A stretch of DNA of 64,000 nt, from positions 75,454,001 through 75,518,000 of the forward strand of contig OZ024740.1 in assembly GCA_964016885.1 (NCBI GenBank), in the 5' to 3' direction. A program made the position numbers and the translations under genes. Within the stretch, counting starts at the first letter, position 1, and every line of letters begins with the position of its first letter. Below, one piece after another: positions 3,898-5,780 of this stretch. Below the pieces are notes generated by a model. The model did not search any database, was not told the origin of the DNA, and worked only from the letters and a program-made list of their open reading frames with translations. The DNA comes from Eledone cirrhosa (lineage: Eukaryota).

Positions 3898-4455
3898 TAT
3901 ATATATATAAATACATATATATATATATACATATATATATATACATATATATATATATATATATATATATATATATATATATATATATATATATATATAT
4001 ATATATATATAATATATATATACATATATATATATACCTATGTATGTATATGTATATATTTATATATATATATATATATTTTCGATTTCATCTCTTTTTC
4101 TTTATACTTTCAGTCGTGTAGGACACCTCACTTTCTAATATATATATATATATGTATATATATATATATATTTTATATATATATATATATATATATATAT
4201 ATATATATATATATATATATATATATATATAAACAATTACATTTTTAACTTAATTGTTTAAGCGTCAGTCATACAAAAGTGAGTTACAAACGAAACGAAA
4301 TTTAATTTCGTTTCGTTATTTGTTTTTATCGTCTCCGCTGAACCGGTGCGTACTCACACTCTATGCAAATTAGTCTGCCCACTACTAATTTTCATAGAAA
4401 ACGCATATAACGATATGTGCTTTTACAATTCTCCAGAAAGGCCGGTAGATAGGTA

Positions 4456-4500
4456 AATATTGCTGATGAGTTGTAACAACAACGAAACTAGTTCAATATT
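4456..4500 (+). ncRNA. Minimal hammerhead ribozyme
   Basis: aatattg-CTGATGA-gttgt aaca acaac-GAAA-ctag-TT-caatatt; helix I extends via ttctccagaaag/ctttctggagaa. Confidence 0.85.
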
Positions 4501-4923
4501 CCTTGTCTGGCTTTCTGGAGAATAGGGGGAAGGTGTTCCCCCGAAAAACCAGTATGACTCTAAAAACCGGTTTGTCTGTGTGTTTACATACAGAATAGCT
4601 GGGCCGCTCACTGTAAAGCGACCAGTGAAAGACTTGGTACACCTACATATGTATACGTGTGTGTATTCATATACACACTAGTATTTCAGTATGCATATGT
4701 AGATGTACATTTTTAACTTAATTGTTTAAGCGTCAGTCATACAAAAGTGAGTTACAAACGAAACGAAATTTAATTTCGTTTCGTTATTTGTTTTTATCGT
4801 CTCCGCTGAACCGGTGCGTACTCACACTCTATGCAAATTAGTCTGCCCACTACTAATTTTCATAGAAAAAGCATATAACGATATGTGCTTTTACAATTCT
4901 CCAGAAAGGCCGGTAGATAGGTA

Positions 4924-4968
4924 AATATTGCTGATGAGTTGTAACAACAACGAAGCTAGTTCAATATT
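4924..4968 (+). ncRNA. Hammerhead copy with GAAA>GAAG mutation
   Basis: Same as 4456-4500 but reads cgaagctag. Confidence 0.7.
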
Positions 4969-5780
4969 CCTTGTCTGGCTTTCTGGAGAATAGGGGGAAG
5001 GTGTTCCCCCGAAAAACCAGTATGACTCTAAAAACCGGTTTGTCTGTGTTTACATACAGAATAGCTGGGCCGCTCACTGTAAAGCGACCAGTGAAAGACT
5101 TGGTACACCTACATATGTATACGTGTGTGTATTCATATACACACTAGTATTTCAGTATGCATATGTAGATGTACATTTTTAACTTAATTGTTTAAGCGTC
5201 AGTCATACAAAAGTGAGTTACAAACGAAACGAAATTTAATTTCGTTTCGTTATTTGTTTTTATATATATATATATATATATATATATATATATATATATA
5301 TATATATATATATATATATATATATATATATATATATGTATATATATATATATACATATATATATATATACATATATATATACATATATATATATATACA
5401 TATATATATACATATATATATATATTCATATACATATATATATACATATATATATATATTCATATACATATATACATATATATATATATACATATATATA
5501 TACATATATACATATATATATATATACATATATATATACATATATACATATATATATATATACATATATATATATATACATATACATATATATATATATA
5601 CATATATATATATATACATATATATATATATACATATATATATATACATATATACATATACATATATATAACATATATATTTCTATATATATATTCATAT
5701 ATATATTTATATATACACAAGCAAATTATAAATGTAAACATGTAAGTATGTTTTTTGAAACGGTGCGCGAGTTTGAATTT

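Follow-up and report, generated by a model that had tools for sequence, protein, structure and literature searches.

Two reports link the metazoan non-LTR retrozymes to Penelope-like elements (PLEs). In the available text of Cervera and de la Pena 2020 (PMC7229834), PLE mobilisation of retrozyme circles was proposed and RNA circles were shown, and the accessible part of Li, Clavereau and Pollet 2026 (bioRxiv 10.64898/2026.07.22.740005) likewise proposes PLE mobilisation of metazoan non-LTR retrozymes, shows circles, and reports that 8 of 9 Xenopus retrozyme dimers were left uncleaved in vitro. For the PLEs themselves, an inverted 5' copy and an optional one-sided tail are known features of the EN+ elements, as far as the available text of PMC3846280 and PMC8557442 goes. 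The purified Poseidon PLE (PAc) cuts and extends both strands, with two internal RNA start sites defining the tail, and in vitro it can dispense with the hammerhead, uses unprocessed RNA, and shows start sites that are equal on both strands (PMC11167929). Non-autonomous Chlamys elements, in the portion of PMC8557442 that was available, form multicopy head-to-tail insertions though most Chlamys are without hammerheads; tandem arrays therefore need not derive from ribozyme circles. Two questions are addressed here: how PLEs make head-to-head copies with a tail at one end, and whether retrozyme circles are PLE templates.

The window, that is, the whole stretch of 64,000 nucleotides that was analysed, comes from a 3.0-Gb genome rich in TA repeats. 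A sequence-only reading of it had proposed a non-coding tandem of about 467 bp with 2.2 units, inserted in (TA)n and carrying one hammerhead per full unit, a long helix I extension and an extra hairpin. Each of these points holds. The tandem at 4239-5263 consists of head-to-tail units of 468 bp, 466 bp and 91 bp starting at 4239, 4707 and 5173, and (TA)n lies on both flanks. In 4232-5262 no frame stays free of stops for more than 84 codons, and the unit is without an ORF. Between units 1 and 2 there are two substitutions and a 2-nt deletion. Two features went beyond that reading: a 10-nt inverted stub at the left edge, and ends which are fixed across the family. These ends fall at site A (unit 12-22, the small hairpin) and site B (unit 88-91, just past the long hairpin). 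The features of the copy are as follows.

4138-4231, no strand: left (TA)n target tract, from the sequence; TRF array at 3897-4231.
4230-4239, minus strand: inverted stub arm of 10 nt, the reverse complement of unit 13-22, ending at site A.
4239-4706, plus strand: unit 1, 468 bp, with an intact hammerhead and one private substitution at unit position 164.
4249-4262, plus strand: site A hairpin (unit 11-24), found again at 4717 and 5183.
4289-4317, plus strand: 13-bp hairpin (unit 51-79) within the tail of about 70 nt between sites A and B, found again at 4757 and 5223.
4430-4521, plus strand: predicted hammerhead 1 with its extended helix I.
4707-5172, plus strand: unit 2, 466 bp (2-nt deletion).
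4898-4989, plus strand: hammerhead 2, probably impaired, its GAAG resulting from A15.1>G at 4955.
5173-5263, plus strand: partial unit 3 (unit 1-91), stopping at site B, the putative RT start for the long arm.
5261-5715, no strand: right (TA)n target tract.

The window copy is one insertion with a B arm of 2.2 units and an A arm of 10 nt. The stub overlaps the start of the long arm by 2 nt and fits the family rule of one A arm and one B arm per insertion. The target TA tract lies directly to the right of an unrelated Neptune-type PLE 3' end (4080-4137). A tRNA-derived SINE was rejected as the identity of the unit: ARAGORN found no tRNA gene in 3400-6200, and simple A-box and B-box patterns were unmatched. 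In the surroundings, a repeat piece at 3510-3896 has an open frame on the minus strand that resembles a LINE C-terminus by eye and gave no Pfam match; related sequence occurs at about 6460-6567. A long, near-perfect inverted repeat with arms of about 100 bp lies between TA tracts at about 5780-6000.

CTGATGA cores were found at 4463 and 4931, giving one type I hammerhead per full unit. In hammerhead 1 the core (4463-4469) is followed by stem II (4470-4483), GAAA (4484-4487) and a palindromic stem III (4487-4492), and the stretch 4456-4500 has the CUGANGA, GAAA and NUH elements together with helices I-III of type I; copy 2 departs from these at A15.1. Stem II has 5 bp and the palindromic stem III 6 nt, with helix III a 2-bp palindromic stem as in dimeric motifs. 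By the hammerhead consensus, hammerhead 1 is predicted to be cut after 4493 (GUU triplet). Rfam Hammerhead_HH9 matched both copies below its gathering score of 52 (4445-4516 with 38.6 bits, E 1.4e-7; 4913-4984 with 35.3 bits, E 1.5e-6), and a gathering-level Rfam scan of the window gave no match. The fold of unit 1 reached -161.8 kcal/mol (z = -10.1), with none of 100 shuffles as good.

The GAAG in the second hammerhead, which had been called likely inactivating, is a real and rare private change at a conserved core position: among exact 30-nt cores there are 5 genomic copies with GAAG versus 5,201 with GAAA, and reversed controls gave 0. A15.1 is conserved in the hammerhead core, and judged by this conservation the change at 4955 likely impairs hammerhead 2. 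A duplex calculation of stem III gave -8.0 for both GAAA and GAAG and did not separate them. In a double hammerhead, GAAG would probably prevent one of the two cuts; with just two hammerheads, one of them mutated, the window copy is likely unable to release a monomer.

The same unit is dispersed at high copy number. Exact 30-nt hammerhead cores number 5,201 and, in a second variant with a swapped stem II pair, 4,075, or 9,276 together, and exact junctions of the B end with (TA)n number 2,209 genome-wide; the family thus has at least 2,209 ends and 9,276 cores. The dispersed copies expected from the earlier reading were therefore present, and a single-locus duplication is excluded. Copies that were read are 86-100% identical to the window unit, range from dimers to long multimers, have low GC and showed no LTR-type flanks. 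With over 9,000 units the family spans several megabases and seeds satellite-like arrays. Contigs from four sequencing runs aligned on the unit, two runs of one organism covering it; these aligned contigs gave no joints and no informative loose ends. Two runs labelled as two other organisms (X5, X6) carried parts of the unit at low depth, mostly 90-100% alike. No RNA run was among those carrying the stretch, which is neutral as to expression.

The stem II pair is U-A in 5,201 copies, A-U in 4,075 and mismatched U-U in 3, the last being searched with a 28-nt pattern. Over 136 predicted pairs, 99.4% of cells pair in 36 units picked for diversity, and 8 of the 136 pairs show a two-sided change, including pairs of the helix I extension and of stem II. 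The covariation score was reached by 0 of 500 shuffles and the count of 8 by 20 of 500; because the structure was derived from the same alignment and its rows are related, these figures are to be taken as support and not as a probability. The consensus fold reached -117.4 on the plus strand versus -86.8 on the minus strand, and the RNA structure of the unit, with its covariation, belongs to the plus strand.

Arms were mapped in 107 regions. These had been collected through top BLAST matches, searches for long arrays and lists of hammerhead pattern matches, not by their ends. Copies with two head-to-head arms were found in 78 regions and copies with one arm in 29. The outer ends of the 78 two-arm regions were A+B in 71 cases, A+A in one and B+B in none, with a broken end in the remaining 6. 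Another 21 regions with the second hammerhead variant contained 18 two-arm copies, 17 of them A+B (one with an irregular A end) and one broken. Altogether, 88 of 89 classifiable two-arm insertions are A+B, with the ends about 70 nt apart; this count leaves out 30 loci selected by their B end and includes possible duplicate loci on unplaced contigs. Short inverted stubs occurred in 6 of 26 one-arm regions, and all five with a classifiable main arm were of the opposite type. The search threshold of 9 nt found none in the other 20 regions and also missed the window stub at 4230-4239. A minimal two-armed copy (L135:3127-3174), with an A arm of 20 nt and a B arm of 32 nt, sits in the TA tract of another element. 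At C1:0.05 Mb (L066:2447-7211) an A+B copy is split by a 4.7-kb insert with a LINE-like ORF of 1,040 aa, i.e. a later insertion.

The outer 3' ends are fixed, whereas the inner 5' breakpoints are scattered across the entire unit. The permuted starts predicted earlier were accordingly seen at the inner 5' breakpoints; the outer 3' ends do not follow this prediction, being fixed at two sites in copies that are two-armed and inverted. BLAST overlaps of 1-37 nt were present at 44 of 81 arm junctions (raw count). Indels are over-represented at internal site B (9 in 5,031 cells versus 96 in 229,100), in keeping with its T run. The idea that the ends arise by Pol III termination at T5 was rejected: arrays continue across many T5 tracts, subfamilies in which the T5 ahead of site A is interrupted still have A ends, and A and B boxes are absent. 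Across the loci read, ends of at least ten other repeats recurrently abut (TA)n, which suggests many TA-targeting families.

With 5'-truncated arms, an adjacent inverted copy and a one-sided tail in a microsatellite target, the family has the anatomy of a non-autonomous PLE, in agreement with the PLE-type origin first suggested from the sequence. The two-arm pattern is consistent with Penelope-type priming in which both strands are used and two internal RNA sites serve as starts; we infer that A is used at one nick and B at the other. The contrary reading, in which the tandem is a satellite or a local duplication formed at the DNA level and its hammerhead a chance match or a relic, could draw on the satellite-like higher-order repeats of some long arrays, and later growth of some arrays in this way is possible. 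As an account of how the insertions arose it is refuted by the thousands of insertions dispersed through the genome, whose 3' ends are fixed and 5' ends truncated, by strand-specific covariation and by a U-U stem II intermediate confined to 3 copies, and we give it almost no credence.

The two arms were next compared with each other. At 43 A+B loci, 32 of 1,451 polymorphic cells differ between the arms within loci, versus 18,010 of 61,620 between loci, and 11 of the 32 come from one locus (C14:24.00 Mb, where 11 of 41 sites differ). Rare variants may be present in every unit of both arms, as in the 20 units at C1:30.83 Mb. Both arms are usually one haplotype; the exceptions are the C14:24.00 Mb locus, the one A+A locus, with arms from different subfamilies, and one insertion that joins two families. 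Such sharing, together with the head-to-head geometry, would also be expected if the second arm were a fold-back or self-primed copy of the first cDNA, its outer end being set by endonuclease resolution, as was proposed earlier (self-priming with EN resolution, in the available text of PMC3846280 and PMC8557442). An excess of near-symmetric junctions points the same way, 12 of 43 lying within 30 nt versus 5.6 expected, several of them at the 51-79 hairpin. However, in 10 of the 43 loci neither arm is contained in the other, A is longer in 16 and B in 27, and the arm lengths are uncorrelated (rho -0.04). Given non-contained arms and the fact that either arm may be longer, fold-back copying cannot be the general route. 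As the sole route it is excluded by the non-contained loci, and the insertion with arms from two different families, which is still A+B, speaks against it as well; we regard this reading as highly improbable.

The second family in that insertion is a sister of the one studied. It is another non-coding hammerhead tandem family with units of 421-466 bp, which aligns with the studied unit over nearly the whole length (score 278 versus a shuffled maximum of 109.5). Its stem III is the same palindrome, its A and B sites are homologous to those of the studied unit, and its copies, too, are two-armed and lie in (TA)n; loci include L021:646-1111, L004:459-879, L012, L015, L146 and L210. In the chimera (L223/L224, C1:149.585-149.589 Mb) a three-unit A arm of the studied family is followed by a studied-family bridge of about 30 nt and then by a B arm of the sister family. 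This single case suggests that the same partner protein serves both families, and that a single event can take in two RNAs and still obey the A+B rule. As the rule holds even when the arms come from different RNA families, the A/B asymmetry would be a property of the protein.

Such a partner was looked for among the PLEs of the genome. Whether the unit is attached to a PLE ORF had been named as a check, and tblastn with four PLE proteins found no ORF attached in sense in the 107 family regions. The single abutting match is an inverted, 82%-identical Neptune-related remnant at C1:2.98 Mb, which was not counted as a partner since it has neither a terminal repeat nor a TA end. No homologous terminal repeat was present on an autonomous PLE in the 42 Neptune-type and 50 GIY-YIG stretches that were read, the latter a small part of 10,596 GIY-YIG candidates; these 50 contained just independent insertions of the two retrozyme families and matches at E 0.25. 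A search for site B followed by non-family sequence gave 121 pattern matches, and all 30 that were read turned out to be family variants.

Intact Neptune-type ORFs are common in the genome. The abundant Neptune-type family with open frames of 796 aa (L156-L167) has a degenerate hammerhead-like motif and a long TG/TA-rich 3' region, and it was rejected as the partner on account of its own unrelated pLTR and ends. This autonomous family, too, has two end sites in (TA)n, separated by 37 nt, and both inverted pairs seen (L160, L162) have one of each end. The window itself holds a Neptune-type PLE fragment of this family, with GIY-YIG, at 17483-18670 on the minus strand. Further PLE-like coding fragments lie at 9518-11323 (plus), 14495-15019 (minus) and 26042-26428 (plus), and of these only 14495-15019 has a Pfam GIY-YIG match. 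Hammerhead-like cores of several other families occur in it at 839/1006, 8523, 12751, 14098, 19725/19863, 22366, 27864, 41959/42058 and 43699/43798; many are inverted pairs, and some recur downstream of PLE ORFs elsewhere.

These searches bear on the possibility that the unit is no more than an autonomous PLE's pseudo-LTR and the copies its 5'-truncated ends. In its favour, pLTRs likewise show the hammerhead, the tail, the inversion and the microsatellite target in the available text of PMC8557442, PMC3846280 and PMC4209133, and the insertions read were about 150 out of more than 2,200. Yet the arms run from unit to unit for up to about 30 units without a body, the inner breakpoints cover the whole unit, and the 107 regions are without a sense-attached ORF, their sole abutting match being inverted and 82% identical. 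Very little weight is left for this reading. The unit as an autonomous PLE in its own right was rejected, there being no ORF in the unit and none attached in sense in the 107 regions.

The form of the RNA template was judged from the arrays, the longest of which have about 30 units in one arm. Of 39 arrays with five or more units, 19 carry no more than 0.5 minor variants per unit; fixed differences from the nearest other array are present in 11 of those 19. Locus-specific variants fixed in both arms need a recent one-unit bottleneck and then repeated copying. Minor variants at 52 loci include 373 singletons, so that later homogenisation looks weak; shared ones are found at spacings of 1 (27), 2 (43), 3 (4), 4 (15), 5 (2) and 7 (1). 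The cut site (unit 254-257) showed 0 indels in 483 crossings, and 5' ends did not pile up there (3 of 177 versus 4.9 expected).

The hammerhead is conserved among founder units, varying at 2 of 45 positions among locus majorities versus 96 of 423 elsewhere (p = 0.003, which is optimistic since the haplotypes are related), and its core is unchanged in every locus majority. Private changes strike it at the background rate (0.0025 versus 0.0026). Such selection on the hammerhead among founders is support for a circular template, though other structured parts are equally conserved (unit 157-195, with 2 of 39 positions variable).

Both arms sometimes share in-register variants across several different units (C10:32.02 Mb, L274), which indicates multi-unit templates. 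Arrays of period 2 and period 4 were found, four with a recurring base change in the hammerhead core or stem II and most without; those with the change include L218+L219 (C1:375.63-375.64 Mb), L077, L141 and L255. Such arrays fit multimer circles but also later duplication. A dead-ribozyme dimer as a mobile template was rejected, as a period-2 variant with a core change was seen at only one locus. Two loci, L220 (C1:95.65 Mb) and L225-L254 (C1:5.74 Mb), between them contain an array exceeding 21 units that shows a 9-unit higher-order repeat, and a single arm of 30.6 units, as in satellite-like growth. Adjacent duplications, blocks and the 9-unit higher-order repeat are DNA-level changes after insertion.

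The strongest competitor keeps the same non-autonomous PLE with two-site, two-strand priming and replaces the covalent circle with a linear, uncleaved multimer transcript, or with a linear monomer that is re-read by template jumps. As part of the same reading, uniform and periodic arrays would come from young sources and later unequal exchange. It gains from PAc, which uses unprocessed RNA and has no need of the hammerhead in vitro (PMC11167929), from hammerhead-poor Chlamys, which yield multicopy tandems (available part of PMC8557442), from the in-register multi-unit variants in both arms at C10:32.02 Mb and L274, and from later DNA change as seen in adjacent duplications (27 shared variants at spacing 1) and the 9-unit repeat. 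It is harder to reconcile with locus-specific variants fixed through 10-20 units of both arms, which need a single-unit bottleneck, and with the cut site, where 0 indels in 483 crossings are unlike the likely result of jumps and 5' ends are not piled up (3 of 177 versus 4.9 expected). Nor did any locus majority have a changed hammerhead core. The genomic patterns favour repeated copying of a monomer; linear multimers and later array duplication explain part of them. The template was probably a circular RNA, to judge by uniform locus-specific arrays, a seamless cut site and hammerhead conservation. From these sequence patterns we take the circle to be clearly the likelier form, and the linear template is rather unlikely, though it deserves serious consideration.

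Taken together, we think it fairly probable that this high-copy, non-coding hammerhead tandem family is a non-autonomous PLE of the non-LTR retrozyme type, and that a PLE protein primes both (TA)n strands from two fixed internal sites of an RNA of about 468 nt, itself probably circular. A tandem locus would be transcribed, and its hammerheads, likely as dimers through the palindromic stem III, would cut out monomers and sometimes multimers, which a host ligase would close. A PLE complex would then nick both (TA)n strands, one nick priming at A and the other at B, 70 nt apart. Each RT may go round the template for 0.02 to about 30 turns, after which the two cDNAs would be connected head-to-head at their ends, in many cases through a few bases common to both.

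More tentatively, and with somewhat less than even confidence, we propose that the PLE complex is asymmetric, the A/B asymmetry being that of the protein. It would perform bidirectional rolling-circle reverse transcription on a ribozyme-made RNA circle from sites 70 nt apart, one for each strand of the cut (TA)n, and the concatemers would be fused head-to-head; arrays of period 2 and period 4 would stem from multimeric circles, in some of which the ribozyme is dead. If true, bidirectional rolling-circle reading would account for two general PLE features, the inverted pLTR and the one-sided tail. The question of head-to-head copies is answered at genome scale, one arm coming from each of two sites, which argues against self-copying. 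The question of circles as templates receives indirect support, including the selection on the ribozyme in founder units.

Several known systems share parts of this picture. The newt and axolotl satellite hammerhead repeats also have a short helix III that requires dimeric folding; they are vertebrate repeats of 330-350 nt with monomer and multimer RNAs, and their insertion anatomy is not described in the available text (PMC7229834). Non-autonomous Chlamys elements such as MRC1 are likewise PLE derivatives with pLTRs and multicopy head-to-tail insertions, judging from the accessible part of PMC8557442. There, Chlamys are mostly without a hammerhead and their 3' end resembles a known autonomous family, whereas the studied family has a hammerhead in every unit and its partner was not found in the PLE stretches read.

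With the EN+ PLEs the family shares the inverted 5'-truncated arm, the tail on one end, the microsatellite target and a hammerhead with a short palindromic helix III (PMC4209133). It differs from them, within the available texts, in that the unit has no ORF, the tail is about 70 nt versus 30-40, and both arms can be many units long. Like Poseidon PAc (PMC11167929), it has two internal RT start sites and both strands are extended. PAc showed no strand difference in vitro, whereas the start sites of the studied family are paired A+B in 88 of 89 insertions; the hammerhead was dispensable for PAc in vitro and is conserved among the founders here.

The closest likeness is to the metazoan non-LTR retrozymes, which also consist of non-coding tandem units of low GC with a type I hammerhead in each, run from dimers to long multimers, reach thousands of copies and share their genome with PLEs. 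The 468-bp unit lies slightly above the 150-450 bp given in the available text of PMC7229834 and within the 51-972 bp of 10.64898/2026.07.22.740005. RNA circles were seen in those systems, as far as these texts go, whereas the studied family is known from DNA alone. Arms joined head-to-head, a pair of fixed priming sites, a tail and targeting of (TA)n are absent from the accessible parts of the same two papers. With paired two-site arms, of which no description was found for a retrozyme in the searched literature (mostly open-access main texts, with supplements and Repbase outside it), the family is a new one of a known kind, the non-LTR retrozyme.
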